Positions 5,682 to 30,604 are shown, numbered from the stretch's first letter. The stretch is DNA of 35,804 bases from Thermotogota bacterium (GCA_003538775.1 DPRG01000006.1:1-35804), one strand, 5' to 3'. The notes: generated by a model not told the origin, from the sequence alone. Program-made: numbers and translations.

Positions 5682-6179
5682 ATGGAGACCGTCACCATAA
5701 TCGTGGAAATCCCAAAAGGAAGCAGGAATAAATACGAATACGATAAAGAAAGAGGGATAATCAAATTCGACAGAACACTCTTTTCGGCCGTGCATTATCC
5801 GTGTGATTACGGTTTTATCACTGAGACTCTGGCCAGAGACGGTGATCCCCTGGATGCACTTGTTCTTGTTTGGGAGCCGACTTTCCCCGGATGTATGATC
5901 GAAGCGAAACCCGTGGGAGCATTCAAGATGTGGGACGAAAAAGGACCAGATGAGAAGATACTATGTGTTCCCATAAAAGATCCTGTCTGGAATTTCGTGG
6001 AAACGCTCGAAGATGTTCCGCCTCACCTTTTGAAAGAAATAGAGCACTTTTTCTCAGTGTACAAGGAACTTGAGGAAAAAATAACAGGCGTTGAAGGCTG
6101 GGTTGACAGACAACAGGCTATTGAGATAATAGAGGATGCGAAAAGACGTTACCTCGAGGAAGCGGGTGAGAAGATTTGA
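5682..6179 (+). CDS. ppa: Family I soluble inorganic pyrophosphatase
   Basis: [34 protein letters not shown]. Confidence 0.95.
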
Positions 6180-7225
6180 CATCCAGGGTATCTTTTCGCC
6201 GTTGCGATACGTACGAAGATGCACATGATGTTCTGAACGATCTGCTTCTTCCCTTTGAAAAGTATTTTTCTAAGGGCGATGAAGTTCTGGTGAAGCCCAA
6301 CATGCTTTCCCCTCGCAAGCCCGAGGAGGCCGTGACAACACACCCGAAAATTCTGGAGGCGGTGCTGAAATTCCTTCTCGATCTTGGTACAACTCCTGTG
6401 GTTGGGGACAGCCCGGCTTCCGGTACTGCGATGAGCGTGGCGAAAAAAGCGGGAATTCATGAAGTTTGCGAAAGGTTGAATGTTCCCATTCTGAACCTCA
6501 ACGATCCTGTTGAGACAAATGGGGAAGTGTACAAAAAAATAAAGATATCGGAAACGGCTATTACCAGAAAAGTGGTGAACATCGCAAAGCTCAAGACTCA
6601 TTCGCAGATGGTGATGACGCTCGGAGTGAAAAACACTTTCGGCTGTGTCGTGGGTATGGAAAAAGCGGGATGGCACTTAAGAGCTGGCACAAACGAGCGT
6701 TTTGCCGATTTGTTGATCGACGTCCATCTGATAGTTTCGCCTGTTATCACCATCATGGACGGTATAGAAGGTATGGAAGGAAACGGCCCTGCGAACGGTG
6801 TGAAAAAGCACTTTGGACTTTTGGCTGTTTCTGATAACGCCTTCGCGCTGGATTACGCCATCGTAGAGGCTCTGAATGTTGATCCAGAGATTGTTTACAC
6901 TGTTAAACGCTCGATAGATAGAGGCTTGATTCCAGAATTCGTGGTCGACGGGGAGTGGAAAGGAGAGATAAAGCTTCCATCAACCGTTCCAGTTGTTCCC
7001 GTACCAAAACCACTGCAGAGCCTTGCCAGAAGATTCGTGAGAGTTCCGAAGATCAATGTAAACAGATGTGTCAGATGCCGGATTTGTGAAAACACCTGTC
7101 CCGCAGGGGCGATAGACATCGACCGCACGAGGATCGATTACAGTAAATGCATAAGGTGCTACGTGTGCCATGAAGTTTGCCCCGAAGATGCCATATTGCT
7201 TGTGAGGAAGTTTCTTATGAGGTGA
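6176..7225 (+). CDS. DUF362 domain protein with C-terminal 2[4Fe-4S] ferredoxin domain
   Basis: [27 protein letters not shown]; two CxxCxxCxxxCP motifs ([24 protein letters not shown]). Confidence 0.85.
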
Positions 7226-7488: not shown

Positions 7489-8148
7489 ATGAAAGTTCTT
7501 GGCGTTATTGGGGGAATGGGCCCTTTAGCGACCTGTGAATTTTATCGGCGTTTGATAGAAAAAACCCCGGCGAGAAAAGATCAGGAGCATATACATGTGA
7601 TAATCGATTCCTACCCTCAAATACCCGACAGAACGGCTTATCTGGTTGGCGCTGGTGAGAATCCCCTTCCGTATCTGATCGATTCCGCGCAAAGGCTGGA
7701 AAAAGCTGGCGCAGATGTTCTCTGTATGCCTTGTAACGCCGCTCATGCGTTTTTCGATGACCTTTCTTCTTCGGTGGGAGTTCCCTTTTTGAACATGGTG
7801 GAACTTGCGGTGAAGTTCGTATCGCGGTTTTCCAAGAGTGCTGTTGTCTTTGCAACCGATGGGACGTTGCTGAGCGGTGTTTATCAGAGGGCGGCAGAAA
7901 GGTACGGTCTCGCGCTGCGTGAATTGTCTCGAAAGTGGCAAAGAAAGCTCATGGATGGTATCTACGATATAAAGGCGGGGCGTCTTGAAGAAGGTATAGA
8001 AAAGATAGAGGTTGTTAGTAGAAGTATCGGAGAAGAGACTATACTGGCAGCCTGTACGGAAGTTTCCATTGCTTTGAAGGGGAAGAGGAACGTTGTAGAT
8101 GCCATGGATGCCCTTGTGGAGGAAGCGATCAGGGTGTGTCTTTCGTGA
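7489..8148 (+). CDS. PLP-independent amino-acid racemase (Asp/Glu racemase, RacX/YgeA-like)
   Basis: LGVIGGMGPLAT, IPDRT, and two catalytic Cys motifs (PCNAAH, ACTE). Confidence 0.88.
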   Translation: MKVLGVIGGMGPLATCEFYRRLIEKTPARKDQEHIHVIIDSYPQIPDRTAYLVGAGENPLPYLIDSAQRLEKAGADVLCMPCNAAHAFFDDLSSSVGVPFLNMVELAVKFVSRFSKSAVVFATDGTLLSGVYQRAAERYGLALRELSRKWQRKLMDGIYDIKAGRLEEGIEKIEVVSRSIGEETILAACTEVSIALKGKRNVVDAMDALVEEAIRVCLS

Positions 8149-9148
8149 TTGTTTCCAAAGGAAAAGCCTCGATCTTCCCTTTATAACCGTCCATAGGCTC
8201 GGCGCATATCAAGGAATCGTAGATGGATTCTTCCACCGTATCGACCACCGCGGAAAAGATTCTGTTGAATTCGGGATTAGAGTCGGGGATCAATTCGACG
8301 GAAATCTTCCCATTTTTCTTCCACCTAAAACCTGTGCTGAGGGCAAGACATATGTCTCCACTCGATGTATAACCAGGGGTTCCGATTCTTCCGAGCGCGA
8401 GCATGGCGTGTCGACATAACCGTTTCAGCTGTCTTGAAGTTAAGGGAATATCGGTGGCCAGGATCATGATGATCGAACCCGCTGTATCTTTAGGGTTAAA
8501 AGGTGAAGACAGTGATTTTCCAAAAAAGCGGAAGTCTTTTGCTCTTCCGTAATTGTTGAGGACGAGAGTTCCAACTGTGTATTTTATTCCATCGATCTCT
8601 ACAACACGCGAAGAACTTCCAATGCCTCCCTTGTATCCGAAGGAAATCATACCCGTACCCGCTCCGACAGAGCCGAGTTCAAAATCTTCACAGGCGTTTT
8701 CCAAGGCTTTGAAAACATGCTCGGGTCTTACCGAAGGATGGGAAATATCGTTCAAAAAACCGTCGTTGCATTCCAGCACGATCGGGTTTACGCTTCTTAT
8801 TTCCGGATGAATGTGCAGCATGTGTCTGACCATTCCTTCGAAAACCTGTCCCACAGAAAACGTGCCGGTCATCGCCAGGGGCGTTTCTATTTGACCAAGC
8901 TCTTCCACCTGGATAAGGCCGGTGGATTTTCCGTATCCATTTAAAACAAAAACCCCCGCACTTAGAGGGCTTTCATAAGGATCTTCAGAAAAATCGATTA
9001 CTGTTACGCCCGTTCTTATCTTTGTAGGGTGGTCCGAAATCAGAGAAACGTGTCCCACGAGTATGCCCTCGACATCTGTTATCTTGTTCAACGGACCAGT
9101 TTCGAACTCACCAACGCGTATCCCAAGATCGCGTAATCTTGTTTTCAC
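8129..9148 (-). CDS. DmpA-like P1 (S58) family L-aminopeptidase/D-esterase-amidase
   Basis: GVTVI, NGYGK, NPIVLECND, GSVGAGTG, KGGIGSSSR and the autoprocessing site G|SII (TAGSIIMILATD); its GTG start shares a base with the fliI stop (TAGTG). Confidence 0.88.
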   Translation of the reverse strand: MKTRLRDLGIRVGEFETGPLNKITDVEGILVGHVSLISDHPTKIRTGVTVIDFSEDPYESPLSAGVFVLNGYGKSTGLIQVEELGQIETPLAMTGTFSVGQVFEGMVRHMLHIHPEIRSVNPIVLECNDGFLNDISHPSVRPEHVFKALENACEDFELGSVGAGTGMISFGYKGGIGSSSRVVEIDGIKYTVGTLVLNNYGRAKDFRFFGKSLSSPFNPKDTAGSIIMILATDIPLTSRQLKRLCRHAMLALGRIGTPGYTSSGDICLALSTGFRWKKNGKISVELIPDSNPEFNRIFSAVVDTVEESIYDSLICAEPMDGYKGKIEAFPLETITKDTP

Positions 9149-10509
9149 TATTCCCCACCTTCATCTGTTGAATCGAGATCTTTTCTTATCATTTCTGAGA
9201 TGTTCATCAACCTTCTTATGGTCTCTTCAAAACTGCTTTTTTCGTATATATCCTGGCGCAAAAATGACATGATCTCTTCCCTGTATTTTATAGCAACATC
9301 CACACGTTTGTTGGTTCCTCTCCTGTAAGCCCCCACCTCAATGAGGTCTCTGGCTTCATTGTACGCGGCAAGGATACTTCTAACCGTACTGGCAGCTCTG
9401 AAATGTTCTTGGGTTACAACTTCCGGCATCAAACGGCTTACACTCATCAGTACGTCCACAGCGGGATAGTGATTCGCTTCCGCTAAATTCCTTGAAAGAA
9501 TAATGTGACCGTCCAGAACACCACGTGCCGTATCGCTTATGGGTTCGTTGAAATCGTCGGCTTCTACCAGCACCGTGTATATACCTGTTATACTTCCGTT
9601 GCTTGAAGTTCCCGCGCGTTCGAGGATCTTTGGAATGGAGGCAAACACGCTCGGGGTATAACCTCTGGATGCTGGTGGTTCGCCTATCGAAAGTCCGACT
9701 TCTCTTTGAGCCATTGCCCAGCGTGTCAACGAATCCACCATCAGCATCACATCATAGCCTGATTCGCGAAACGCTTCAGCGATGGTGGTAGCGACGTAAA
9801 GTGCCTTAACTCTCACAAGCGCGGGACGGTCACTGGTGGCTACAACCACCACGGATCTCTTCAACCCTTCTTCACCCAGGTCTCTTTCCAGAAACTCTCT
9901 AACCTCTCTGCCTCTTTCCCCTACAAGGGCTATGACGTTGACATCGGCTTTGGTGTTACGGGCGATCATTCCCAGGAGAGTACTCTTTCCGACACCGCTA
10001 CCTGAGAATATACCTATTCTCTGCCCTTTTCCCAGGGTAAGAAAGGCGTCTATCGATCTTACGCCTACCTCAAGAGAATCGGTTATTCTTTTACGTAAGA
10101 GAGGATTTGGAGGATCTGACCAGACGGGGACTTCCACAGAGTCATAGAAACGATCTCCATCCATTGAATTTCCGAGACCATCCAGAATTTTGCCTAGCAG
10201 TGACAGGATGTTCTTTGGGATCTTCACACTGAACGTTTTGAAGGTTCGCACTACCTCACATCCCTGGGAAAGACCGGTAGTATCCTGAAGCGGCATCAAT
10301 ACTACATTGTTCTCATGAAATCCCGTCACTTCAGCAAACACAGTTTCCCCAGAAGGTAAGATCAAACGGCAGAGTTCTCCAAGAAAGGCGTCTGGACCTC
10401 TCGATTCCACAGTCAAACCGACTATTTTCGTAACACGCCCATTTACCCTTACTGGTTCAATCCTGTGGACTTTCTCTCGGAACTGTTCGAGCTTCTGAAG
10501 ATACTTCAT
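9148..10509 (-). CDS. fliI: Flagellar export ATPase FliI
   Basis: Walker A GSGVGKS, GERGRE, DSLTR, GEPP..RGY, LDGHIILSR, HYPAVD. Confidence 0.95.
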   Translation of the reverse strand: MKYLQKLEQFREKVHRIEPVRVNGRVTKIVGLTVESRGPDAFLGELCRLILPSGETVFAEVTGFHENNVVLMPLQDTTGLSQGCEVVRTFKTFSVKIPKNILSLLGKILDGLGNSMDGDRFYDSVEVPVWSDPPNPLLRKRITDSLEVGVRSIDAFLTLGKGQRIGIFSGSGVGKSTLLGMIARNTKADVNVIALVGERGREVREFLERDLGEEGLKRSVVVVATSDRPALVRVKALYVATTIAEAFRESGYDVMLMVDSLTRWAMAQREVGLSIGEPPASRGYTPSVFASIPKILERAGTSSNGSITGIYTVLVEADDFNEPISDTARGVLDGHIILSRNLAEANHYPAVDVLMSVSRLMPEVVTQEHFRAASTVRSILAAYNEARDLIEVGAYRRGTNKRVDVAIKYREEIMSFLRQDIYEKSSFEETIRRLMNISEMIRKDLDSTDEGGE

Positions 10510-11200
10510 TTTTCAACTCCTCAACATGCTCGAGAAATTCTTCGAGAATTCTGTAAGGAGAGACTTCAATGATCCCGTACTCGGTTTCCACGAGAATTTC
10601 TGAGCGTTTGAGGCCGGGATCTGGTCTCAGGTGTATTTTTTTATCTGAAAGGAAAAACTTTTTCAGCTCTTCTCCAAACTCTTCATAGTCACGTTCATTG
10701 AGACGCATGACCACTTCTGTAGCTGTTTTCAGTTTATCAAAAACCCTCTCAAGGTTGATCTTTAAAACCCTGCCGTGGTCTTCAAGTCTTTCTTCGAAGA
10801 GTTTTAAAGACGTCATTTCAAACACTTCAAGAAGCAGTGGCAGAGCCTCCTTTTCAAGTGTATGAAGATACTCCTCATAATGTTCAAGTGCTTTCTCTAC
10901 TATGTTCACGAGATCTTCCGCTTTTTTCAACCCTTCCTGATAAGCCTGTTCAAACGATTTTCTCTTTAACTCTTCCGCCTCTTCCAGAGCTTTTCGGCGG
11001 ATTTCTTCGGATTCTTCCAGTGCTTTATTAAGAAGCTCTTCCGCCTGTTGCTTTGCATTTTCGACTATTTCAGTGGATTTTATTTTGGCTTCGTCGAGGA
11101 GCTGACGGGCTCTGTATTCCGAAGCGTCCGTGTCATCTTTATCGTTCGTTTCTTCAACAGGCAGATCGATCAGTATGAGATGTTTTTTTATAAGACTCAC
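10457..11200 (-). CDS. fliH: Flagellar assembly protein FliH
   Basis: Coiled-coil N-half with A-x3-G (AYQEG), C-terminal ETEYG; sits between fliG and fliI; GTGA overlap. Confidence 0.8.
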   Translation of the reverse strand: MSLIKKHLILIDLPVEETNDKDDTDASEYRARQLLDEAKIKSTEIVENAKQQAEELLNKALEESEEIRRKALEEAEELKRKSFEQAYQEGLKKAEDLVNIVEKALEHYEEYLHTLEKEALPLLLEVFEMTSLKLFEERLEDHGRVLKINLERVFDKLKTATEVVMRLNERDYEEFGEELKKFFLSDKKIHLRPDPGLKRSEILVETEYGIIEVSPYRILEEFLEHVEELKNEVSSEARTVPRESPQD

Positions 11201-12189
11201 ATTATCAGCTCCTCGCCCCCGCCTCTTGCAATAACAATTTCACCCGCTTCTTCCAGTCTTCTGATTACGTTTATAATCCTCTGCTGTGCTTCCTCAACGT
11301 CCCGGAGTCTTACAGGTCCCATGAACTGTATCTCTTCTTCCAGCAGAGAACGGGCCCTTTTGGACATGTTGTTGAAGATCTTTTCCTTTACTTCATCGTT
11401 CGCACCTTTGAGCGCGAGGGCCAGGTCATGTTTATCCACCTGCTGCAGGACAACCTGGACACTCCTGTCATCGAGTTTCACTATATCTTCGAAGACGAAC
11501 ATCTTCTTGCGGATCTCTTCAGCCAGCTCCGGATCGGTTTCAGAAAGCGCTTCCATAAGCGAGCGTTCTGTGCTTCTATCGAGGGTATTGATTATCTCAA
11601 CAGCGGTTTCTATTCCCCCAACCTGTGCGAAGCTCTGCGCGGTGAATGCCGAGAGGCGTTGCTCCATGAGGCGCTCAACTTCCTTTACGGTATCCGGCAT
11701 AGCCCTATCGAGCATTGCAATACGTCTTATCACATCTGGTCGAAGTTCTTCAGGAAGCGCTGAAAGTACCAGTGAAGCTTGCTGGGGAGGCATATAGGAG
11801 AGTACGAGTGCGATCGTTTGAGGGTGCTCGTTTTGAAGAAAGTTAACTAATTGAACAGGATCCACGCGTTTGAGAAATTCGAATGGCTTGACCTGAAGAT
11901 TCGATACCATCTTATCTATGATTTCCATCGCTTTTTCAGGCCCAAGGGCCTTTTCCAGTAGTTGTTTCGCATAGTCCACGCCACCCGCCATAAAGAACGA
12001 GCGCGCTCTTGAGAGATCCTGAAATTCCTGAGCAATCTGGCGCTTTTCCTCATCACTGATTTCTCCAAGATTGGCTATCTCAAGAGTAAGCTGTTCTATC
12101 TGATTCTCATCAAGCTGCCGCAAAACCCTGGCAGCATTATCAGGTCCCATAAGAACCAGCAGGATCGCCGCCTTCCTTAAACCGTTCAT
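11197..12189 (-). CDS. fliG: Flagellar motor switch protein FliG
   Basis: KAAILL, EHPQ, GG linker, MFVFED, MSKRA, VRLRDVEEAQ. Start ATG 12189 with GAGGGGG SD; the ORF track overextends it. Confidence 0.96.
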   Translation of the reverse strand: MNGLRKAAILLVLMGPDNAARVLRQLDENQIEQLTLEIANLGEISDEEKRQIAQEFQDLSRARSFFMAGGVDYAKQLLEKALGPEKAMEIIDKMVSNLQVKPFEFLKRVDPVQLVNFLQNEHPQTIALVLSYMPPQQASLVLSALPEELRPDVIRRIAMLDRAMPDTVKEVERLMEQRLSAFTAQSFAQVGGIETAVEIINTLDRSTERSLMEALSETDPELAEEIRKKMFVFEDIVKLDDRSVQVVLQQVDKHDLALALKGANDEVKEKIFNNMSKRARSLLEEEIQFMGPVRLRDVEEAQQRIINVIRRLEEAGEIVIARGGGEELIM

Positions 12190-12202
12190 CTGACATTCCC
12201 CC

Positions 12203-13771
12203 TCATTCCGATAACCACATGCGAATGACATCTGCTACCGATTCAGGATCTTTATTTGAAAGTTCGATCAGTTCCTTGATGAACTGAGCAAACTCCTCTT
12301 CTTCGGGAGCCAGTTCTTTCACCTCTTCTTCGAATTTTTCACGGAGTTCTTTTTCCAGCTGGCGCCTGCGTTCTTCCACAAGCTTCCTTGCACGTGCACG
12401 TCTGAGTTGATGACTGATCAGGAAAATCGCCAGCACAGCAACTACCACCAGCAGCGAATACCCCAGAATCAATCTCCTTCGAGCTTCCGCTTGCTGCGCT
12501 TTCTTCATCTCGGCTTCGATTTCGGCAGCAAGCTGTCTGTTGAATGGTATAAAAACGAGGGCTATGCTGGTAGGTGGAGAATTAGTCGCGAGGGCCAGGG
12601 CGTTTTTCAATTCTTCTTCCAAAGTGCTGCTGGTGCTTATTGGGCTGATCGCCGAAGCGTCCACCACCACTGTGAAGGATTTGGATGAAATTTCTCCATA
12701 CTTGTCCGAGACAATCTTTTCGTATATTTCGTTTACATTGTAATTAACAACACTCCTGGTGCGTTCGGAGCTCTCGCTTCCAGTTGTGATCGAAGGATAG
12801 GTAGTTGGAGGAATGTTACCTTCGGTACCCACATCTCCACCCGGGGATACGCCTTTAGCGGTCTCCTTTTCTTCTTCTTTACTGATTACTATTCCTTCGT
12901 TTTTGGTAACGGGTTCGTATTTTTTGCTTTCTCGCTCTATTTTTTGCCAGTCAAGTTCTATTTCAGACATTACAACAACGTTTCCAGGTCCAAATATCTG
13001 TTCCAGCTTCTGTGTTATGAGGTTTGTGTAATACTGCTGTACCTGTCTTTTTAATTCGAATTTCGTCGTTGCTTCCAGGTTTTGAAGGTCGAGGACCACG
13101 CTGTCGCTGAGTATCCTTGAACGATTGTCTATAACCCTGACATCTTTCACGTCAAGGCCTTCGACAGCGCCGGCCACAAGCTCCATTATACCCTTTACCT
13201 GTTTAGAATCAAGTTCTGCACCTGGCTCCAGATATACCAGCACCGAAGCTGAAGGCTTCGTTCCATCCCGAGTGTAGTATGTGAATTTGGGGAGTGTGAG
13301 AAACACTCTTGCGAATCTCACACCATCAATAGTAGCTATGCTTCTTTCGAGCTCTCCCTGCAGGGCACGCTGGAAGTTAACCTGTTTGTCAAAAGCCGTT
13401 GCACCGAAACTCTGCTGGTCAAGTATTTCGAACCCCCTCGTTGCTGTTCCCAGAACACCTTCGGCTGCGAGTTTCATCCTCACTTCGTAAACGTTGGCGG
13501 TGTCGGGTATGAGTATGGAGCCTCCAGGGCCTGCTTTATAGTTTATACCCATGTTTTCGAGGGCCTGCGCGATTCTCCCGGCTTCATCTTCGCTGAGGTT
13601 TTTCACAAGTACCACGTAATTTGTTCGCGCCACTTCCACTCCAAGAACTACCAGCAGGATTACCCCGGCCAGAGCGACCGCAATTACGGTTAACTTACCT
13701 GTAGTGGGGAGTCTTTTCCAGCCTTCGGTTAATCTTTTCAAAAAGGATCTTAAACCTTCTATAAAATTCAC
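12203..13771 (-). CDS. fliF: Flagellar MS-ring protein FliF
   Basis: Two TM segments; GFEILD, RALQGELERSI, ARVFL, PSASV, VA-x-VIRMWL; GTG start with GAGGTGA SD. Confidence 0.93.
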   Translation of the reverse strand: MNFIEGLRSFLKRLTEGWKRLPTTGKLTVIAVALAGVILLVVLGVEVARTNYVVLVKNLSEDEAGRIAQALENMGINYKAGPGGSILIPDTANVYEVRMKLAAEGVLGTATRGFEILDQQSFGATAFDKQVNFQRALQGELERSIATIDGVRFARVFLTLPKFTYYTRDGTKPSASVLVYLEPGAELDSKQVKGIMELVAGAVEGLDVKDVRVIDNRSRILSDSVVLDLQNLEATTKFELKRQVQQYYTNLITQKLEQIFGPGNVVVMSEIELDWQKIERESKKYEPVTKNEGIVISKEEEKETAKGVSPGGDVGTEGNIPPTTYPSITTGSESSERTRSVVNYNVNEIYEKIVSDKYGEISSKSFTVVVDASAISPISTSSTLEEELKNALALATNSPPTSIALVFIPFNRQLAAEIEAEMKKAQQAEARRRLILGYSLLVVVAVLAIFLISHQLRRARARKLVEERRRQLEKELREKFEEEVKELAPEEEEFAQFIKELIELSNKDPESVADVIRMWLSE

Positions 13772-13786
13772 GTGCTCACCTCTTTT

Positions 13787-14797
13787 TCAATACCCAACTT
13801 CGAGTCTCAGGTACAGTGTTTCATTCCATCCAGCATATACGTTTATGTCCCTATAACTACTTCCCAGTTCGAAAACGGGTACCCCTCCGTAAAAACCGCC
13901 AGAAATGGTAAACCCGTTGATCTTGTATCTGGTTGTCAACACCGCGCCGTTATCCCAGCCAATTTGAAACGGGAAATTCCAGAGCTCCGTCCACAGAATC
14001 ACTCCGGCATCTCTGGAGATCAGATCCATACAACCCAGAATGTTGTTTCTTTCGGATAGAGAAAGACCTACTCCAAGCGATAGAACACCCAGCTGTTCTT
14101 TCGATATATCTATCCCGGCGTTGATACCGAACATAAGAACACCGAAAGGCTGTGCCAGAAATGAGACGTTAAACACAGCCGCTTCTTCTTTGAAACCTCC
14201 GCGCAGACTCAGCCACGCGGTATCGTAAATCATGCTGGCTTTTATCTGCCCTTCCTTTATCTTTTCCTCCGTGTTGCGCACCTTATCGAGGTACGTTTTA
14301 CCTGCTCCCACAATGCCGTATCTGGACACATTGCCAGGCCCAAAGTGGTAAGCCGCGATCGCTTTGTCCTGGTTGTTGAATTGTTTTTCAAGATCTTTCA
14401 GATATTTATAGCCACCTTTGACGTTTTCAAATGGATTGAACCTGTTGGAGACGCCGAGTATTTCCGCAGTTTTAGGCATCAGCTGCATAAGCCCGGCAGC
14501 ACCCAGATATGAGTATGCATGGGCGTTCATGGAAGATTCCACGAAGATTATAGACTTCGTCAACGTTCGATCCTTCTTATCCACGCCTGAAATGGAAAGC
14601 AGGAAATCCGTCGGCATGAACGGGAACCGTAATGGTATATTGACAACAGCGTAACCGTAATTCTGTGAAACGTGTGCCGAAAAATTGGTTTTTCCATGGT
14701 AAAATACCGAAGGTTCAAAGAAAACAACTCCAGAGAAAAGCGTGCTCATAACTATTATCAGATACAGGAGACTGAATGCAAGGTGCAAACGTCTCAT
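13787..14797 (-). CDS. Lytic transglycosylase (GH23/SLT) with C-terminal beta-strand-rich, predicted beta-barrel domain
   Basis: Signal peptide or TM at aa 1-22; VES (catalytic E87), GLMQ, AYHFG; aa ~190-336 is Gly/aromatic-rich with alternating hydrophobicity and ends LYLRLEVGY. Confidence 0.8.
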   Translation of the reverse strand: MRRLHLAFSLLYLIIVMSTLFSGVVFFEPSVFYHGKTNFSAHVSQNYGYAVVNIPLRFPFMPTDFLLSISGVDKKDRTLTKSIIFVESSMNAHAYSYLGAAGLMQLMPKTAEILGVSNRFNPFENVKGGYKYLKDLEKQFNNQDKAIAAYHFGPGNVSRYGIVGAGKTYLDKVRNTEEKIKEGQIKASMIYDTAWLSLRGGFKEEAAVFNVSFLAQPFGVLMFGINAGIDISKEQLGVLSLGVGLSLSERNNILGCMDLISRDAGVILWTELWNFPFQIGWDNGAVLTTRYKINGFTISGGFYGGVPVFELGSSYRDINVYAGWNETLYLRLEVGY

Positions 14798-14826
14798 AGA
14801 TTCACCTCTCAGTTGTTATCGTTTGT

Positions 14827-14832
14827 ATTATA
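14827..14832 (-). promoter_or_regulatory. Consensus -10 (TATAAT) upstream of the SLT-fli operon, in a 60-bp divergent intergenic region
   Basis: Perfect TATAAT 30 nt upstream of the ATG; no recognisable -35. Confidence 0.35.
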
Positions 14833-15602: not shown

Positions 15603-16591
15603 AAAGGCCGACGATAGCGGTAGACGCAATGGGCGGTGATCACGCGCCTGAAGAAATACTGAAAGGGGTCTTCGAAGCGGCAGAAGAAGTGAACGCCGAT
15701 TTTCTGCTTGTTGGACAGAGAGAAACCCTTGAAAATTTGTTTGTTCGAGTTTTTTCGAGAATTCCCGAGAACGTCAAGATACACGAAGCCCCCGATGTCT
15801 TTCGGACAGAGGAAAAACCATCTGAGGTCCTCAAAAGAAGGACCTCATCACTTTTTGTTGGCGCCGATCTTGTCAGGCGTGAAGAAGCCGATGGGTTTGT
15901 CAGTGCTGGCAACACCGGTGCCTTACTTGCGGTTGCGACTTTTGTCATCGGACGCATTCCAGGTGTGGAAAGACCTGCGCTTGCCACCCCGATACCCTCA
16001 AAAACCGGCGTCACAATCCTGATCGATGCGGGAGCTAATGCGGAGGTCAAACCGAAACACCTTCTCGATTTCGCGAGGATGGGTAGTGTTTATGCGGAGC
16101 TTCTGGGTATCTCTCGCCCGAAGGTCGCTCTTCTCAACATAGGTGAAGAGCCTGAAAAGGGTAATACAGTGGTCAAGGATGCTTATCAACTCCTCAAGGA
16201 TACTCTCGGTGATAGATTCTATGGAAACGTTGAAAGTAGAGATGTTCTGGAAGGTAAGGTTGATGTGGTTGTGGCAGATGGCTTTGCTGGAAACATCGCC
16301 CTGAAGGCCTACGAAGGCGCGATGAAATTCATGTTTGATCTGATAAAAGAAGGTGTGAAGAAAAGCGGATTCTTTGCCAAACTGGGCGCTCTGATGATGA
16401 AAGATGTTTTTGGTCACGTAAAATCCCGTCTGGATTATCGAACTTATGGTGGAGCTTTCTTTCTTGGCGTTAACGGTGTAGTGGTTAAGGCCCATGGAAG
16501 TTCCGATGCGCTGGCTATAAAGAACGCCCTTAAACTCGCGGAAAAAGGTGTTCGAACCGGGATGCTGGAAAAGATACGGGAGCTGGTTTGA
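15599..16591 (+). CDS. plsX: Phosphate acyltransferase PlsX
   Basis: IAVDAMGGDHAP, SAGNTGA, RPA, DAGAN, LLNIGEE, DGFAGN, KAHGSS; start ATG 15599 (ATGA overlap with rpmF). Confidence 0.95.
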   Translation: MKRPTIAVDAMGGDHAPEEILKGVFEAAEEVNADFLLVGQRETLENLFVRVFSRIPENVKIHEAPDVFRTEEKPSEVLKRRTSSLFVGADLVRREEADGFVSAGNTGALLAVATFVIGRIPGVERPALATPIPSKTGVTILIDAGANAEVKPKHLLDFARMGSVYAELLGISRPKVALLNIGEEPEKGNTVVKDAYQLLKDTLGDRFYGNVESRDVLEGKVDVVVADGFAGNIALKAYEGAMKFMFDLIKEGVKKSGFFAKLGALMMKDVFGHVKSRLDYRTYGGAFFLGVNGVVVKAHGSSDALAIKNALKLAEKGVRTGMLEKIRELV

Positions 16592-16592
16592 G

Positions 16593-18419
16593 ATGTGTGG
16601 AATCGTGGGCATGGTTGGTAGAGAGTACAGTCTTAAAGCGCTTCTGGAAGGCCTGAAAAAGCTTGAATACAGGGGTTATGATTCTGCAGGCGTTGCCTTT
16701 GTTGAAAACGGAGTTCTGGCTCTCAGGAAGGTTCGTGGAAGGATCGACCAGTTGATTGAAAAGATGGGTTCGGAGCTCAACAAAAAGGTCCGTGCTGGCA
16801 TAGCTCACACAAGGTGGGCAACTCATGGAGAGCCCAATGAGATAAACGCACATCCTCAGACCGATTGTACCGGTAAATTGGCGGTTGTTCACAACGGAAT
16901 CATAGAAAACTATCGAGAGCTTAGAGAGGAGCTCATTGCCAGGGGACACGTGTTCATATCCGAGACCGATACCGAGGTTATCTCGCATCTTATAGAGGAA
17001 AACTTTGATGGTGATCTTATGGAGGCTGTGAGAAAGACCGTTCGTCGTCTTGACGGAGCTTATGCGATAGCCGTGACTCATGCCGATAAAACCGAGGAGC
17101 TTGTTGTTGCACGGAAAGGAAGCCCACTTGTTCTTGGAAAAGGTGATGGATTGGCGCTTCTGGCATCTGACGTGACTCCCATGCTAAGCTACACGAGAGA
17201 TGTTGTCTTTCTGTCCGATGGTGATGTTGCGAAGATAACGGGTGAGTCACTGGAGATTTGCGATTTGGATGGCAACACGGTGGAGAGGGAGCTTATACAT
17301 GTGGACTGGGATGAATCGGATGCGGAAAAATCGGGTTACAAACACTTCATGTTGAAGGAGATTATGGAGGAACCCGAAGCCCTGCGTCGCGCCATTACCA
17401 ACAGGATAACTCCTGATGGACGGATAATGTTCGAAGAACTTGAAATGCTGGAGAAGTTACTTCCTTCAATCAGAAAGGTTATGGTGGTTGCCTGTGGGAC
17501 GAGTTATCATGCGGGCCTGGTTTTCAAGTATTTTCTTGAGAGAATTTCCGAGCTTGATGTTGAGGTTGATGTAGCCTCGGAGTTCCGATATAGAAACCTG
17601 CACGTGGATGAAAACACACTGGTTATAGCGATATCACAGAGTGGAGAGACGGCTGACACTCTTCAGGGTGTGAGACTCGTCAAGAGAAAGGGAGGAATCG
17701 TTGTATCGGTCTGTAACGTGGTTGGATCGACTCTTACAAGGGAAAGCGATGCCACCATTTTGATGATGGCCGGCCCGGAAATAGGTGTTGCGGCAACGAA
17801 GACTTATGTTTCACAGCTGGTCGTCTTATACCTCCTCGCGATGTTCATAGCTTCGAAAAGACAGGATTGGAAGCGTGAATTTGACGAGATCCTCTATCAG
17901 CTTGCTCACACCCCTGAGGTGTTCGAAGGTCTTCTTTCGAAATCGGAGGAGATTCGTAATCTCGCTGATAAGTATCGCAATTTCGATCACTTTATGTATA
18001 TAGGAAGAGGTTTTGGTGTTCCCACAGCCATGGAAGGAGCTTTGAAGCTTAAAGAGATCAGCTACATCAACGCCACAGCCTATCAGGCTGGAGAGCTAAA
18101 GCACGGGCCCATAGCTCTTCTTGACAGCAAATTTCCTGTGTTTGCCATAGCACCACGTGACAGACTGTTCCAGAAGATGAAAAGCAATATCATGGAGTCG
18201 CTCGCAAGGGGTGCGCCCATAATCTCCCTTGGAACCGAAGGCGATGAAGAGCTTCGGGAGATTTCCAGCGATGTTTTATGGGTTCCAAAGGTGGATGAGA
18301 ACCTCTATCCACTTGTTATGGCGCCTGTTATCCAGCTCTTTGCGTACCACGTATCAGATCTGAAAGGTCTTGATCCCGATAAACCGAGGAATCTTGCCAA
18401 GAGCGTCACGGTAGAATGA
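16593..18419 (+). CDS. glmS: Glutamine--fructose-6-phosphate transaminase
   Basis: MCGIVG N-terminal nucleophile, EYRGYDSAG, HTRWATHG, HNGIIEN, SQSGETAD, PRNLAKSVTVE; start ATG 16593. Confidence 0.97.
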   Translation: MCGIVGMVGREYSLKALLEGLKKLEYRGYDSAGVAFVENGVLALRKVRGRIDQLIEKMGSELNKKVRAGIAHTRWATHGEPNEINAHPQTDCTGKLAVVHNGIIENYRELREELIARGHVFISETDTEVISHLIEENFDGDLMEAVRKTVRRLDGAYAIAVTHADKTEELVVARKGSPLVLGKGDGLALLASDVTPMLSYTRDVVFLSDGDVAKITGESLEICDLDGNTVERELIHVDWDESDAEKSGYKHFMLKEIMEEPEALRRAITNRITPDGRIMFEELEMLEKLLPSIRKVMVVACGTSYHAGLVFKYFLERISELDVEVDVASEFRYRNLHVDENTLVIAISQSGETADTLQGVRLVKRKGGIVVSVCNVVGSTLTRESDATILMMAGPEIGVAATKTYVSQLVVLYLLAMFIASKRQDWKREFDEILYQLAHTPEVFEGLLSKSEEIRNLADKYRNFDHFMYIGRGFGVPTAMEGALKLKEISYINATAYQAGELKHGPIALLDSKFPVFAIAPRDRLFQKMKSNIMESLARGAPIISLGTEGDEELREISSDVLWVPKVDENLYPLVMAPVIQLFAYHVSDLKGLDPDKPRNLAKSVTVE

Positions 18420-23245: not shown

Positions 23246-24676
23246 GTGAGGTTTAGAACGGTCATAGGTCTGGAGATACACGTCCAGCTTCAAACTAAAA
23301 GTAAGATGTTCTGCTCCTGCTCGGCTGATGTCTTTGACGCCTCTCCAAACACGCATATTTGCCCCGTTTGCACTGGACAGCCCGGTGCCCTTCCAGTGGT
23401 CAACGGCGAGGCGGTAAAGCTGGCCGTTTTGACCGCCCTGGCTTTGAACTGCCAGGTTAATCTATTTTCGCGTTTTGACCGTAAGAACTACTTTTATCCC
23501 GACCTCCCCAAAGGTTACCAGATCACTCAGTATTTTTATCCTCTGGCGGAAAGAGGGTATCTTATCATCGAAGACGATGAAGGTAACGAGAAGGTAGTCA
23601 GAATAAGAAGGATACATCTCGAGGAAGACGCTGGAAAACTTTTCCATGAAGAAGACAAGAGTCTTGTGGATCTGAATCGCTGTGGTGTTCCGCTCATAGA
23701 GATCGTAACAGAACCGGACATCGCTTCTCCGGCTGAAGCGAGGCGCTTCATGGAAGAGCTGAGAGCAGTGGTGCGCCATCTCGGAGTTTCCAGTGGTGAT
23801 ATGGAGAAGGGTGCCTTAAGATGCGATGCGAACATCTCCGTTGAAGATGTTGAGACTGGCCGTAAAAGCAACAGGGTTGAGGTGAAAAACATCAACTCTT
23901 TCAGATTCGTTGAAAAGGCGCTGGAGTTTGAATTTGAAAGGATAAAGAAAGCGCTGGAAGGCGGAAAGAACGTTGAGAAAGAAACCCGTGGTTGGGATAT
24001 GAAGACCAGAACCACCATTTCCATGCGGAGTAAGGAAGAGGAAGCGGATTACAGATATTTCCCCGAACCGGATCTTCCACCGCTTGTCTTGAAAGAGGAA
24101 TTCGTGAAGAATTTAGAGCATTCACTTCCCGAACTGCCGCGTGAACGCGCTTTGCGCCTTTCCCGGGAGTACGGCATTCCGTTGAAAGAAGCAAAGATTT
24201 ACGCTCTGAGACCGTCCGTTGCGGATTTCTTCGAAGAAGCGGCGGGTCTTTATGGGGATCCGAAAACCGTTTCGAACTGGATTCTGAGCGAGATTTTGAG
24301 GGAATTGAAGGAAGAAGGTGAGGATCGAATATCCCTGACGCCTGCACAACTGGTTGAGTTGTTGAGGCTTCTTGATGAGGGAACTATCTCCACGAGGATC
24401 GCGAAGGAACTTCTTCCTGAGATGATATCAACCGGGAAATCCGCAAAACGGCTTGTTGAAGAGAAAGGTTTATCTCAGATCGATGACGAATCTCTCATAA
24501 GGGATATACTGCAGAGAGCTATACAGGAGAATCCAGACGTTGTTGAAAAGTACCGTTCTGGTAAAAAGCAGACACTGGGTTTCTTCGTGGGTTTCGTTAT
24601 GAAGGAAACGAGAGGAAAAGCAAATCCAGCGGTGGTGAATCGAATTGCCAGGGAACTTCTCGATCAGGATCTTTAG
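23246..24676 (+). CDS. gatB: Asp-tRNA(Asn)/Glu-tRNA(Gln) amidotransferase subunit B
   Basis: [61 protein letters not shown]; GTG start at 23246. Confidence 0.96.
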
Positions 24677-25454
24677 CATTGTGTGTCTATTTTTAAGTCT
24701 GGCGGTCATCTATGTGGGCTTTAATATCGTGCTCAATCCCGAGGATTTCGTGGTTCGAGCTTTCTCAGGGCCCCTGTCTGTGGGAATGCAAAAAGATGGA
24801 CTGCTTCTTGGTATGAACCTGATGGCGTCCGAAGAAAGTTTCACGGAAAGTGAAGTGAAACTCGGTATATTCTCAAGAAAGATCAGGCTCAAGACGTCAG
24901 AATCCTCTTTGAACTTTTCCTCAGGGATTCGTTTACCCGATATGACACCCTGGGCGATGATCGAATTTGACCATCGCGGCATTTTTCCCATACCCTCTTC
25001 GAGCGCCATGGGTTACGGCATCTGGACTGGCGGCTTTCTTTTCTATTCCAGATCGAATTTGAGGATCCCTCTTGCGGTTTTAAGTGGAGGTTACAAGTCA
25101 GAGTTCTTTACCACAGGGGCGTGGAGCTACCAGGATACCCTCCTGTATCTGAACACATCTTCTCTGGATCTGCGTTTTCGCAGAGGAGGGGAGTACTGGT
25201 ATATAGGAATTCCGATTAAGTCCTTCGATTCTCTTGGTGAATATGGCGTTGCGCTTGGACTGGGCAGGTATGTGGATTCATGGTGTGCGGTGCTGGATGT
25301 AGATGTCTTCAAAACCGCGAGGTTAAACCCCGTGTTCTTGTTTGACATCCAGAACGGTTCTGCCAGCTGGTTGTTAACCTTCAATGGTCATGCTGGACGC
25401 AGTTTCACACTGATGATTTCGCCTGAGGAGGCTTTTCTGGCAGTTGGGTGGTAG
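24645..25454 (+). CDS. Hypothetical exported or membrane-anchored beta-strand-rich protein
   Basis: 269-aa ORF overlapping both neighbours; N-terminal hydrophobic segment; Gly/aromatic-rich alternating strands; C-terminal FLAVGW. Confidence 0.65.
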
Positions 25455-26560: not shown

Positions 26561-29500
26561 TTATGCGTAGGATACCCTGTCTTTGCCCGAGTTTTTTGAA
26601 ACGTATAGGGCTTTGTCCGCAAGAGATACGAGATCTGCTGCCCTCTCAGGCCTGTCATCAGGCAGCCCTGATACTCCAAGGCTGATCGTTATGGGAAATG
26701 GGAAGGGATTTCTGGATTTTATCGTCGATCGCAGTTTTTCAGCTACTTCTATGGCTTTAGATTTCACGGTGTTCGTGAGTATTAATATGAACTCTTCTCC
26801 GCCGTATCTTCCCACTATGTCGGTCGCTCTGACGCTTGAGGTCATAATGGCGGCGATGAACTTCAAAACCTCGTCCCCTTTTGGATGCCCGTAGGTGTCG
26901 TTTATTTGTTTGAAATCATCGATGTCAGCCATGATCACAGAAAAGGGTATACCATAACGTCTGTACCTTTCGAACTCTTCCTCCAGCCTCTTCGTGAAAT
27001 ACCACCGGGTATAGAGTCCGGTCAGCGGGTCTGTGATGCTCGTCTCTTGTGCCATGGAAAATCGAATAGTTCCTATCAGTGCGATTTCCATCTGGTTCAG
27101 GAACTCCAGATAGTATTCAAAGGTTTGATCATCCAAAAACAAATGTGGATTTTCTATGAGAACGACCAGATCGTGTTCGCTGTCTATTCTCATCGATTGG
27201 AGGATCTTCAATGGTTGTGAACCGGAAATGTCCTTGATAAAATCCTGGCTCAACAGATTTTCTGGTATTTCACCGTATTGTACCAGTGGCTGGCTATGGC
27301 GTCTCAACACCATGGATATGTTTTCAGCGGGTATCAGGTTTCCCAGTCTATTGGAAAGATATTCCAGCAGCTCTTTTGTGGAAGCGATGTTGTTTGCAAA
27401 CCTGATAGTCATTAGCGCCTCGTTTTTCATCAGGTTCTGCGTTCTGTACCAGTCCTGACGATTTTCGTAGAGCTTCTTAGATCCAGCGAATACAGGATAA
27501 GATTCAAGCGCATCTGCGGCATTGTCAAATCCAATGGACTCGTAAATCTCATACGCGCGTCTGAGAAATCTTCGTGCTTTTAAGTTCTCTCCATCAGCCC
27601 AGAAAGCCTTTCCAAGCCCCTCATAAATCAAAGCCAGTGAAAGGAGCATATCCGCAAGCGCATTGCTTTCTTCGGATTCAAACGCTATCTTCAGAAAGAA
27701 GTCTCTGTTGAGTCTTATCATCCTTTCGGAGAATATGAGGATGGATTCTTCTCTCCAGAAAACGGTCTTTTCGATCAGTTCTTTCCATGCTTTCTTGAAA
27801 TCTTCATCGCTTTTCGCAAGGATGAGATGAGCAAACGGCAGAAAACTCGTATGGGAAATTGCGGGATCGTCTATGTTTTCCAGTAGCAGTTCTCGCGAGC
27901 GTTCCAGATCGCCTTTCATCGCATATAGAGTGGCCATAGCCCTCAGCGCTCTTTTTCGAAAACCTGACGCTTCTTCTATTTGAAGTTCGCGCTTTAAATC
28001 TTCTTCCGCGTCTTCGTACTCCTTGTTATAGGCATGGAACATCCCTTCGATGAAGTAGGTTCGCGTGATTCCATAAAGATTGCCGGATGCCGTGGCAACG
28101 GATCTAATTTCCTGGAGTTCTCTTAAAAACTCTCTTTTCTGACCTTTGTACAGGCTGTTGACCAGGAGTTCGAGCTTCAGGTTTATAAGCTTGTTGTGTA
28201 TACCGAGTTCTTTACTTTTAGACGAAGCGCTTTCCAGAAGATGTTGCCCGAGAGCCGGTAAAACCGGCAGGAAACGATTTGCAACAGCGCTTTGTAGCTT
28301 TATCAGTTCCACCCAGGCCCTGTGTTTTTCGAGTGTTTCCATGGCATTCTTAAGTTTTTCCATCGTGGATGTTCCAACATGTGAACTGACAGAGAGTTCA
28401 AGTAATGCGAGCTCTCCCTGAAATTCCGCGTAAACAACATGGTGTTTACAGTTTAGTGGCGTGAACCTTTCGAGTTCCTGCCGGGATAGATTTACGAGCT
28501 CTTCTGGTCTTTCCCCCTTCAGGTTCGCGAATTTCAAAAGTAGAGTCAGCACACGCAATCGTAGATAAGGAGGAAAATCCCTCAAACGCTCGTCCATTCG
28601 TAATGCCAGTTTCCTGGCTTCCTCCAGATTCTCGGAATTGAGGGCTATGGAAAGGCGATAAAAGTCTTTGAGATGTGTGATTGTAACATGTTCGTCCAGG
28701 AGTTTCTCGGCATCCTCTTGACGCTCTTCAATTTCTGAGAGGAGCCATGCAAACCTGGTACCCAGGGCGTAAGAGGTCTCCCCTTGTTTCAAAAAGCTTT
28801 TTGCTTCTTCGAGGAACATCTTTGCTCTTAGATAGTTTCCATCGTCGAGCGCTTTAATCGCCTCTTTGATACACAACGCCGCGGCACTTCTTAGTTTTCC
28901 AAGGCGTTCCAGATACCATGCTTTGAGCCAAGGATCATCGACCATCCTGTAAAGTCTTTCGTATATCTTTTTCGCTTCCGCTTCTTCCACCTGCTTGGCA
29001 AATATTTCCCAGAACTCGTGCAGGTTAAATTTGTAGATTTCGTCCGACTCTTTGTAAAGAAAACCGTACTTCATCAGCTTTTCAAGTGCATTGCGAAGTG
29101 AGTGAACCGGAACATCCAGGACCTTCACCAGCGCATTGATTTCATCTTCAGAGAACCTCGTTCCCAGGAGCGCAAGACGCGACCATGTCCAGATGTACTC
29201 TTTGGGTACAGATTTCAAACGTGCTTCTATCAGGTAATCAAATCCTTTCAACTTTTGGGGTTCGAATTCCTCTGGATTTTTCCTCAACTGAGGATAAAGC
29301 GTTCTCAAGATTTCTACGGCTAACCCCGGTATACCTTCGGATAAAGAGTGCAGCCACCTGGTAATCTGCTGACGTGTATCTTCGGGCAAATCTTCGAAAA
29401 CGAACCTCAGAAGGCGGCCTATTTCTTCTTGACCAAGCGGGGGAATGTTCAGCGAGATGCTTGCGGATACGTCAAGCCCTTCTGCGGAGTGTGTTACGAG

Positions 29501-30604
29501 GATTTCAACAATCCTACCTTCGTATTGAGCAAAAGAGATGTCTTTTAAAAATAGCTTCAAATCAGGATCTATCGCGTCGTAATCGTCTATCAATATGAAG
29601 AGATTGTCGAATCCCTGAAGTAGGATTTTTACAGCCAGTTTGACCGCGTCGTTCAACGTTCCTGAACTCACGTAATCCATCAAAACTCTTTGAGTCTCGG
29701 GACTTAGATTATCGAGTTTCTCTGCTCCAATCTGAACGAGTGATTCGATAAGCCTTTTAATGTCTCTTGCGACAATTACGCTGTAACCAGACTCTCTCAA
29801 TTCGTGCTGGATCATTTCCAAGAAGGTGGATTTTCCCACACCGTGTTCACCAAAGATATGAAAGACATGAAAGCCCGCATCGAGTTCTTCGATTTTTTCC
29901 CTTACCAGGTGTAATAATTCATCCCTGCCGACAGGCGGCAGGGTAAGCTGAACGTATTCACGGCGAATTCCCCTGCTTTTCCACTCTTCAACGCACCCTG
30001 GTAGCGATACGTGAGAAGGACGCGAAGACGGATCTTCAGCTGTCAGAGATGTTACGAGCGTTTTAAGAGCATCAGGTATTTCGCTTTTAAGAAGTTCTTC
30101 CATCGTTTTCCCAAGGACATAGATCGAAGAAGTGATGTGCATTTTACCTGTTTTTAGAAAATATGGATCGACAAAGGCGTTTTCGGAAAGCGCCTCAGGT
30201 TTGAACCACACTGGAAGCAGGAAGAAAAAGTCATCGAGCTCCAAAATGTCATCGAATCCGAAAGTCGCAAAGGCTGGAATGTCCATATGGCTAAGTAGAT
30301 GTGCCAGTTCAAGGAGTTTTGCCGCCAGATACTTTTTTTCGCCGCTTTCCAGATGTTGTGGAGCAACAGGGGCTTCAGCTCGAAATGGATAATAGATCTT
30401 TATCACGTCACTGAATTCCACCCTTTTGGGGAGGATAAGATCTCTCAAATTGAATTCTCTGAGTTTCTGAAGCCTCGTGACAAAATCCGCGTAGTGACTT
30501 CCAGGGGAATGAGACATCACCTTCATTCTGAGGTATTCATTGCCTTCCACAACAAGAAACTCTTCACCGGAATAGGTGTTTCGCAAACGTCGAAGGATCT
30601 TCAT
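26561..30604 (-). CDS. Multidomain diguanylate cyclase: degenerate kinase-like domain + STAND-type ATPase + TPR-like helical region + GAF-like + GGDEF
   Basis: SIYVLG..MEELL and L..DP..RP kinase C-lobe motifs; VGRDEL, Walker A GEHGVGKS, Walker B FILIDD, GIP; DPLTGL, DIDDFKQINDTYGH..GD, RATD-IVGRY-GGEEF. Confidence 0.85.
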   Translation of the reverse strand: MKILRRLRNTYSGEEFLVVEGNEYLRMKVMSHSPGSHYADFVTRLQKLREFNLRDLILPKRVEFSDVIKIYYPFRAEAPVAPQHLESGEKKYLAAKLLELAHLLSHMDIPAFATFGFDDILELDDFFFLLPVWFKPEALSENAFVDPYFLKTGKMHITSSIYVLGKTMEELLKSEIPDALKTLVTSLTAEDPSSRPSHVSLPGCVEEWKSRGIRREYVQLTLPPVGRDELLHLVREKIEELDAGFHVFHIFGEHGVGKSTFLEMIQHELRESGYSVIVARDIKRLIESLVQIGAEKLDNLSPETQRVLMDYVSSGTLNDAVKLAVKILLQGFDNLFILIDDYDAIDPDLKLFLKDISFAQYEGRIVEILVTHSAEGLDVSASISLNIPPLGQEEIGRLLRFVFEDLPEDTRQQITRWLHSLSEGIPGLAVEILRTLYPQLRKNPEEFEPQKLKGFDYLIEARLKSVPKEYIWTWSRLALLGTRFSEDEINALVKVLDVPVHSLRNALEKLMKYGFLYKESDEIYKFNLHEFWEIFAKQVEEAEAKKIYERLYRMVDDPWLKAWYLERLGKLRSAAALCIKEAIKALDDGNYLRAKMFLEEAKSFLKQGETSYALGTRFAWLLSEIEERQEDAEKLLDEHVTITHLKDFYRLSIALNSENLEEARKLALRMDERLRDFPPYLRLRVLTLLLKFANLKGERPEELVNLSRQELERFTPLNCKHHVVYAEFQGELALLELSVSSHVGTSTMEKLKNAMETLEKHRAWVELIKLQSAVANRFLPVLPALGQHLLESASSKSKELGIHNKLINLKLELLVNSLYKGQKREFLRELQEIRSVATASGNLYGITRTYFIEGMFHAYNKEYEDAEEDLKRELQIEEASGFRKRALRAMATLYAMKGDLERSRELLLENIDDPAISHTSFLPFAHLILAKSDEDFKKAWKELIEKTVFWREESILIFSERMIRLNRDFFLKIAFESEESNALADMLLSLALIYEGLGKAFWADGENLKARRFLRRAYEIYESIGFDNAADALESYPVFAGSKKLYENRQDWYRTQNLMKNEALMTIRFANNIASTKELLEYLSNRLGNLIPAENISMVLRRHSQPLVQYGEIPENLLSQDFIKDISGSQPLKILQSMRIDSEHDLVVLIENPHLFLDDQTFEYYLEFLNQMEIALIGTIRFSMAQETSITDPLTGLYTRWYFTKRLEEEFERYRRYGIPFSVIMADIDDFKQINDTYGHPKGDEVLKFIAAIMTSSVRATDIVGRYGGEEFILILTNTVKSKAIEVAEKLRSTIKSRNPFPFPITISLGVSGLPDDRPERAADLVSLADKALYVSKNSGKDRVSYA

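Follow-up and report, generated by a model that had tools for sequence, protein, structure and literature searches.

What kind of protein carries a peptidoglycan-cleaving domain between two stretches of predicted beta strands, where in the cell envelope would it sit, and what would it do there? These questions are raised by a gene at positions 13787-14797, on the minus strand, of a 35,804-nucleotide stretch of DNA from a Thermotogota bacterium (GCA_003538775.1 DPRG01000006.1:1-35804), which is referred to in its full length as the window. An earlier note on this DNA had taken the gene product for a lytic transglycosylase fused to, or inserted in, an outer-membrane beta-barrel. Our analysis predicts an exported lytic transglycosylase of family 1 (SLT/GH23) as the gene product. 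Its SLT domain is inserted between predicted beta segments and would lie on the peptidoglycan side if these segments form a barrel. The evidence taken together tips the balance slightly toward the beta part being an integral barrel of the outer envelope. The parts of the gene are as follows.

13787-14797, minus strand: whole SLT-beta gene, 336 amino acids, ATG start, stop codon at 13787-13789 (open reading frame list, full-length homologues)
14803-14808, minus strand: Shine-Dalgarno sequence GAGGTG, 5 nucleotides before the ATG (read from the sequence)
14732-14797, minus strand: amino acids 1-22, putative Sec-type signal or anchor, with MRR ahead of a hydrophobic core (hydropathy, AlphaFold helix)
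14612-14731, minus strand: amino acids 23-62, conserved N-terminal segment, predicted beta hairpin (AlphaFold DSSP, both runs)
14243-14611, minus strand: amino acids 63-185, SLT (GH23, family 1) domain, all-helical (Pfam, PDB, Foldseek)
14318-14572, minus strand: Pfam SLT match, amino acids 76-160 (PF01464)
14537-14539, minus strand: codon of E87, predicted catalytic Glu in FVESS (aligned to the E-S motif of SLT homologues)
13790-14242, minus strand: amino acids 186-336, C-terminal beta region, 12 predicted antiparallel amphipathic strands (AlphaFold DSSP, strand faces, composition)
13790-13816, minus strand: amino acids 328-336, LYLRLEVGY, beta-signal-like motif (pattern and chance estimate)

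The signal, beta flanks, SLT core and C-terminal pattern that the earlier note had listed are all present in this open reading frame. When the gene is compared with a homologue whose product is 61% identical (P0002), the proportion of nonsynonymous differences (pN) is far below that of synonymous differences (pS) in every region; in the C-terminal part the values are 0.30 and 0.73. The whole reading frame is therefore a real gene under purifying selection. The protein belongs to a family of five clusters at 90% identity, all of them from Thermotogota.

The SLT core is recognized by Pfam with a highly significant score (E = 1.4e-22, 79.9 bits, cut-off 21.3). E87 is invariant in all five family members, and the GLMQ motif at residues 102-105 is invariant or nearly so among them and aligns with that of ordinary SLT proteins. 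At the third motif, AYH (residues 149-151, in the context AYH-F-G) stands where A-Y-N-x-G is expected and where ordinary SLT homologues read AIAAYNAGPG. Four members of the family have AYH and one (P0026) has AYC. Judged from the alignment, the change from AYN to AYH is a conservative variation of a single motif, and the intact core that the earlier note had described, with E87, GLMQ and AYH in place of AYN, agrees with both the Pfam match and the motif alignment. Sequence matches in the PDB (MltF, Slt70 and a phage tape-measure SLT) cover the SLT core only. Two AlphaFold2 runs were made, one from an alignment of three sequences and then one from an alignment of five, and both place seven helices across amino acids 63-181. 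The predicted local distance difference test score (pLDDT) of the domain in the second run is 78-93 over most of its length. The helical part resembles a GH23 chitinase in Foldseek comparisons with the PDB (probability 1.00, TMt 0.57). The whole-protein NCBIfam cut-offs were missed for MltF (47.7 bits, cut-off 354), Slt70-type (36.2, cut-off 536), MltC (19.1, cut-off 375) and MltD (16.7, cut-off 508) enzymes. By its score and by two of the three motifs, the protein is assigned to the SLT domain family, outside the curated MltC, MltD, MltF, Slt70 and BB0259 families.

The protein begins with MRR followed by a hydrophobic stretch of 18 residues in the hydropathy profile, and a helix was modelled over residues 2-16 or 2-21 in the two AlphaFold runs. 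Identity to P0002 is only 33% over amino acids 1-22, compared with 80% over amino acids 23-62. In the window protein, cleavage is possible at VMS↓T, which agrees with the -3/-1 rule, and the homologue P0026 has a canonical signal-peptidase site, SFA↓T. Of the signal peptide proposed in the earlier note, an n-region and an h-region are present; the cleavage site is non-canonical in the window protein and is clear only in P0026. In two homologues that are about 40% identical, P0023 (L003, 432-1451) and P0024 (L007, 1449-2471), the sequence LISC near the end of the signal fits a lipobox, and ILSA↓G offers an alternative site. Some family members could, on this reading of their sequences, be lipoproteins; unlike P0023 and P0024, the window protein has no Cys in its N-terminal part.

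In both AlphaFold runs, DSSP assigns strands before the SLT domain at amino acids 40-44 and 49-62. Those after it lie at 189-203, 206-215, 221-230, 235-246, 251-258 (second run only), 264-272, 275-281, 285-293, 296-303, 306-315, 318-324 and 328-334. The first run therefore has 2 + 11 strands (13) and the second 2 + 12 (14), and the positions that they share agree. The beta-like flanks that had been proposed from the sequence, about 45 amino acids before and about 147 after the SLT domain, hold these strands in both models. Substrates of BAM, the machinery that assembles beta-barrels, have both of their termini in the periplasm. With an even count of 14 strands and both termini periplasmic, the SLT domain would be carried by a periplasmic turn, the one that joins strands 2 and 3. 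Among the Foldseek matches of the beta part in the PDB, those with the highest probability, which are also the longest, are transmembrane beta-barrels. VDAC, Tom40 and Mdm10 are matched with probabilities up to 1.00 (best E = 4.9e-3), and other matches of this class include OmpG and PorV, both with 14 strands, NanC and OEP21. Designed transmembrane barrels were also matched, the best of them one with 12 strands (TMt 0.45, root-mean-square deviation 5.5 Å), as were the beta-domains of intimin and invasin (probability 0.75-0.87).

The composition of the beta segments points in the same direction as these matches. Charged residues make up 15.9% of the C-terminal beta part and 8% of amino acids 23-70, compared with 25% of the SLT domain. 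Among 278 sliding windows of 150 amino acids from the other 29 analysed proteins encoded in the window, charge as low as that of the beta part was found only in Acyl_transf_3, Lnt and MFS proteins and in one other open reading frame that resembles an outer-membrane protein. Soluble or secreted proteins of the window have 22-41% charged residues, and a secreted all-beta GH16-CBM protein has 25%. When the strands of the five homologues are divided by face, one face has 78% hydrophobic and 4% charged residues. The opposite face has 34% hydrophobic and 20% charged residues, with 17% Gly and 24% Ser/Thr/Asn/Gln. All members of the family keep flanks that are rich in beta sequence and poor in charge.

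The last nine residues, LYLRLEVGY, are hydrophobic at positions 1, 3, 5, 7 and 9 and end in Tyr. A pattern of this type has a chance of about 0.4% per protein at the composition of the window. An aromatic residue closes only two of the 31 window proteins, of which this one alone has all five positions hydrophobic (four of five in the other). The motif is also kept in P0002, as FYFRLDVGY. The toga porin OmpB of Thermotoga maritima has a C-terminal motif of a similar kind, YLYLKASVAF (PMC3387000), and Thermotogota possess BamA and several beta-barrel toga proteins (PMC10160955). No transglycosylase is mentioned in the main texts of two toga proteomics papers. Elsewhere in the window, a 269-amino-acid open reading frame downstream of gatB (24645-25454, plus strand) has an N-terminal hydrophobic segment, is rich in beta structure and has no Pfam match. 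Its product is 16% charged, 10% Gly and 15% aromatic, and it ends in AFLAVGW, with a V-G-aromatic terminus like that of the SLT protein. Judging from these sequence features it may be a second barrel protein of the toga or outer membrane. It was also considered as a paralogue of the beta part of the SLT protein, and this was ruled out by the lack of sequence similarity.

Members of the family are few, and their databank labels are "lytic transglycosylase domain-containing" or "hypothetical". When 5.8 billion protein clusters were searched with a word index, P0002 (61% identity) was the single full-length relative to emerge. In an exhaustive hidden Markov model search of 1.84 billion representatives, a profile of the C-terminal part matched only P0002 and P0023 (E = 1e-5); a profile search added P0024 (39% identity) and P0026. 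The last of these is a 353-amino-acid "hypothetical protein" from a Thermotogaceae or Pseudothermotoga-like metagenome-assembled genome (MAG), which has the same layout and is 27% identical from end to end. The C-terminal beta region has only three homologous 90% clusters (P0002, P0023 and P0024), and P0026 aligns with it weakly, at 15% identity. Identities to the window protein of 52%, 27% and 15% in the C-terminal beta region stand against 73%, 61% and 43% in the SLT core, and by this measure the beta parts diverge faster than the core. A scan of GTDB genomes with the C-terminal alignment found only a Guaymas Thermotogae MAG that encodes a P0002-type protein with one residue different. A metagenome scan with the full-length alignment gave 80 generic SLT loci, which matched SLT-core patterns and of which none covered the beta part. 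Two candidates for membership, at L008 and L059, were rejected as ordinary SLT proteins. A word-index search with the five-sequence C-terminal alignment returned nothing at E up to 0.01, the family's own members included, and is uninformative.

The surroundings of the gene, in a window that is ordinary Thermotogota chromosome, bear on what the enzyme might do. It is the first gene of a putative fliF-fliG-fliH-fliI operon, whose other genes are listed here.

12203-13771, minus strand: fliF, 15 nucleotides downstream of the SLT gene, with its own GAGGTG Shine-Dalgarno sequence and a GTG start (Pfam YscJ_FliF, YscJ_FliF_C)
11197-12231, minus strand: fliG, overlapping its neighbours (Pfam)
10457-11200, minus strand: fliH, overlapping its neighbours (Pfam)
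9148-10509, minus strand: fliI, overlapping its neighbour (Pfam)

A terminator scan found no terminator-like site between the SLT gene and fliF. Divergent from the SLT gene, at a distance of 60 bp on its other flank, lie yceD, rpmF, plsX and glmS. A promoter scan of the 60-bp region between yceD and the SLT gene gave no full sigma-70 match; a TATAAT hexamer at 14827-14832 on the minus strand was spotted by eye only. The order yceD, divergent SLT gene, fliF, fliG, fliH and fliI is kept on the contigs that encode P0002 (L001, which also carries a TM1266-like gene) and P0024 (L007). The 1.7-kb contig of P0023 (L003, 40% identity) has yceD, the divergent SLT gene and fliF, and then ends. The gap between the SLT gene and fliF is 15-16 nucleotides and is kept in homologues as distant as 39-40% identity. 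Separate flagellar SLT enzymes, namely SltF, PleA and BB0259, are believed to open the peptidoglycan for the rod where FlgJ has no enzyme domain (PMC8517470). Because the gene adjoins fliFGHI and this order is kept in homologues, our best functional guess is that the product is a dedicated enzyme for the flagellar hole in the peptidoglycan. The exception of P0026, described below, and the lack of specific similarity to BB0259 lead us to regard this assignment, which takes gene order as its basis, as about evenly balanced. The idea that the barrel substitutes for a missing L-ring was dropped, as both FlgH and an L-ring have been reported for Thermotoga (PMC1586193).

Directly after fliI, where fliJ might be expected, the window has a gene for a peptidase of the S58 (DmpA) type (8129-9148, minus strand) that shares one base with fliI. 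An S58 gene likewise follows fliI at 15627-16646 on the contig of the 61%-identical relative, and L007 has an unannotated gap and a reverse-strand gene at this place.

Taken whole, the reading that we favour falls somewhat short of an even chance: an exported SLT enzyme, carried on its own 14-strand outer-envelope barrel, would open the wall for the flagellar rod. After export by Sec, the N-terminal hairpin (amino acids 40-62) and the 12 later strands (amino acids 189-334) would form a small 14-strand barrel in the toga, probably inserted by BamA through the C-terminal LYLRLEVGY. The SLT domain, lying between strands 2 and 3, would hang from a periplasmic turn and face the peptidoglycan. There it would cleave the glycan without hydrolysis, like other SLT enzymes, and leave 1,6-anhydro-MurNAc ends, so that the peptidoglycan would be opened for the growing rod. 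Passage of the rod is the most likely job because the enzyme would be made together with FliF, FliG, FliH and FliI. The anchor in the outer membrane would limit the enzyme's site of action. In its sharpest form the proposal is that a BamA-inserted toga barrel holds a complete lytic transglycosylase in a periplasmic turn and breaches the wall only directly under the outer envelope, and in this form we consider it rather doubtful.

A number of results weigh against this proposal. Model confidence is low, with a mean pLDDT of 61-65, a pLDDT of 50-72 in the beta part and a predicted template modelling score of 0.55-0.57, and the five models spread widely, between 36 and 65. No Foldseek match of the beta part in the PDB reaches E <= 1e-3 or a template modelling score above 0.5, and soluble FABP (fatty-acid-binding protein) barrels (probability 0.6-0.85) and RSL and TolB propellers are also among the matches. 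All connections between strands are 2-5 residues long, without the long outer loops usual in outer-membrane proteins. The last seven strands have 7-10 residues (about 10 on average with their turns), a small length for crossing a bilayer. Three prolines fall within predicted strand 2, which in P0026 is interrupted midway by an insertion of 13 residues. None of the five members has a Pfam match in its C-terminal part, and the beta part has no PDB sequence match, at E up to 10 in each case. Mapping of insertions and deletions to loops was dropped as an argument for a barrel, as MAFFT sets several gaps inside predicted strands. At the C-terminus, the beta-signal that the earlier note had proposed holds for the window protein and P0002 but is absent from P0023 and P0024, which end in YFLTLES, and from P0026, which ends in FIFKTTQP, and the terminal aromatic residue is therefore not family-wide. 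At the N-terminus, neither the window protein nor P0002 has a canonical A-X-A signal-peptidase site. The flagellar part of the proposal is weakened by P0026, at whose loci (L004-L006, gene at 6001-7062) a metallophosphoesterase gene follows and not fliF. It is also weakened by the NF047373 model of BB0259-type flagellar lytic transglycosylases, which gives 31.5 bits against a cut-off of 234 and aligns only within the SLT core (amino acids 77-158 on profile positions 563-651 of 705). The outer-membrane barrel of the earlier note, for which AlphaFold had been named as a check, consequently comes out divided: the strands run up and down, the SLT domain is inserted between them and the best matches are transmembrane barrels, but pLDDT is low, matches stay above E = 1e-3 and soluble folds are matched as well.

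In a rival reading, the beta segments would form a soluble periplasmic domain, such as a sandwich, a partial propeller or a closed soluble barrel, and the protein would be periplasmic rather than embedded in the toga. Such a domain might have peptidoglycan, the rod or the MS-ring as its binding partner, or might control the SLT active site. The low-confidence models with their soluble-fold matches, the short strands with uniformly short turns, the unconserved terminal aromatic residue and the lack of a match to any outer-membrane-protein family of Pfam are all in its favour. It fits poorly with a charge content far below that of the soluble and secreted proteins of the window and equal to that of its membrane proteins. 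It also has to explain one strand face that is nearly free of charge in five homologues and another with many Gly, Ser, Thr and Asn residues, like a barrel lumen. Soluble up-and-down barrels have 8-11 strands, so that 14 would be unusual, and the fold matches of highest probability and greatest length are membrane barrels. On this evidence we consider both the soluble domain and the roles suggested for it unlikely, though far from negligible. An uncleaved N-terminal signal anchor, which would tether the protein to the cytoplasmic membrane beside the MS-ring and leave the SLT and beta domains in the periplasm, is quite improbable. The missing A-X-A site in the window protein and P0002, the modelled N-terminal helix and the position of the gene just before that of FliF, the MS-ring protein, are compatible with such a tether. 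Set against them are the cleavage site of P0026, the lipobox-like LISC or alternative site of P0023 and P0024, the agreement of VMS↓T with the -3/-1 rule, and the fact that conservation within the protein is lowest in this segment, as it is in signal peptides.

The same architecture of barrel and SLT domain might also belong to a housekeeping lytic transglycosylase for growth and turnover of the wall, with the adjacency to fliF being incidental. In that case the barrel would take the place of the lipid anchor that the MltA-E enzymes have in E. coli. The one neighbour common to all five family members, P0026 included, is the divergent yceD-rpmF-plsX cluster and not fliF, and the link to flagella is thus not universal in the family. 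The genes downstream of P0026 are unrelated to flagella, and NF047373 is not matched significantly, which also counts for this reading. However, the gene precedes fliF in four of the five family clusters, and its close spacing to fliF, without a terminator, is kept down to 39-40% identity. We regard a housekeeping role as improbable, and the same holds for the barrel as a stand-in for a lipid anchor.

Two further genes of the window were noted in passing. A homologue of apolipoprotein N-acyltransferase (Lnt) with CN_hydrolase and LNT_N domains is encoded at 1373-2848 on the minus strand, and its presence implies triacylated lipoproteins in this Thermotogota lineage. A 1347-amino-acid protein encoded at 26561-30604, also on the minus strand, starts with an AAA_16 (STAND-like) ATPase region at its N-terminus and carries a GGDEF diguanylate cyclase domain at its C-terminus, with no Pfam match over most of its length.

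The control of lytic transglycosylases depends largely on their placement, which may be achieved by solubility, a lipoprotein anchor, a membrane helix, or recruitment by FlgJ or MipA. If the favoured reading is true, threading of the catalytic domain into a barrel of the same chain would add one more way of placing them, and the hole in the peptidoglycan would be lined up with the point where the flagellum crosses the toga. The protein would, as far as we know, be the first peptidoglycan-cleaving enzyme on its own outer-membrane barrel and the first example of such a barrel with an enzyme domain inserted in a periplasmic turn. It would also show, in a natural protein, that a folded enzyme is tolerated in the periplasmic turn of a BAM substrate, which is relevant to the folding of outer-membrane proteins and to display engineering. 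The Thermotogota toga has been discussed as a model for the origins of outer membranes (PMC10160955). An enzyme would be added to its set of beta-barrels, whose description has so far been structural only, and Thermotogota would gain a concrete candidate for flagellar wall passage. Should the beta part be soluble, the protein would be an ordinary SLT enzyme of a flagellar operon with an orphan accessory domain. The reach of the finding is limited, since the members of this tiny family come from uncultured organisms.

Comparison with known systems shows which parts of the proposal have precedents. With Slt70, MltC and MltE of E. coli and MltF of Pseudomonas aeruginosa, the window protein shares the E-S and GLMQ motifs and the all-helical fold resembling goose lysozyme; it differs from them in having AYH, or AYC in P0026, in place of AYN and in reaching no equivalog cut-off. 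To our knowledge, family-1 SLT enzymes are soluble, lipoproteins or anchored by a membrane helix, and none has its catalytic domain between beta-strand segments. We know of no other lytic transglycosylase that is anchored by a barrel, and nothing relevant came of a full-text literature search for lytic transglycosylases whose C-terminal domain is a beta-barrel. SltF of Rhodobacter sphaeroides, PleA of Caulobacter and BB0259 of Borrelia burgdorferi are, like the protein described here, separate SLT-type enzymes encoded with flagellar genes (PMC8517470). They have no barrel-like beta domain, and the match to the BB0259 model runs through the SLT core alone. SltF depends on FlgJ for its recruitment, whereas here the outer envelope is the proposed anchor and the flagellar link is one of gene order only.

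In function the protein would resemble the dedicated flagellar enzymes and also the lytic transglycosylases anchored to the outer membrane, which comprise the Mlt lipoproteins and the MltA-MipA pair of E. coli. In this pair a lipoprotein lytic transglycosylase is bound by an outer-membrane scaffold protein, which keeps it at the membrane's inner face. MltA and MipA are two proteins, and the fold of MltA is unlike that of SLT enzymes, whereas here a single chain would hold both functions. Intimin, invasin and OmpA-type proteins, which with the ushers come nearest in architecture, resemble the proposal in combining a small barrel with a periplasmic domain directed at peptidoglycan. Their periplasmic domains (LysM, OmpA_C) bind peptidoglycan without cleaving it, and they sit at a terminus and not in a turn. 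The ushers FimD and PapC are 24-strand translocation pores whose plug is a lumen-occluding beta domain and no enzyme, but they provide a precedent for a folded domain inserted between the strands of a barrel, and the translocation domain of FimD is itself a weak Foldseek match of the beta part (probability 0.82).

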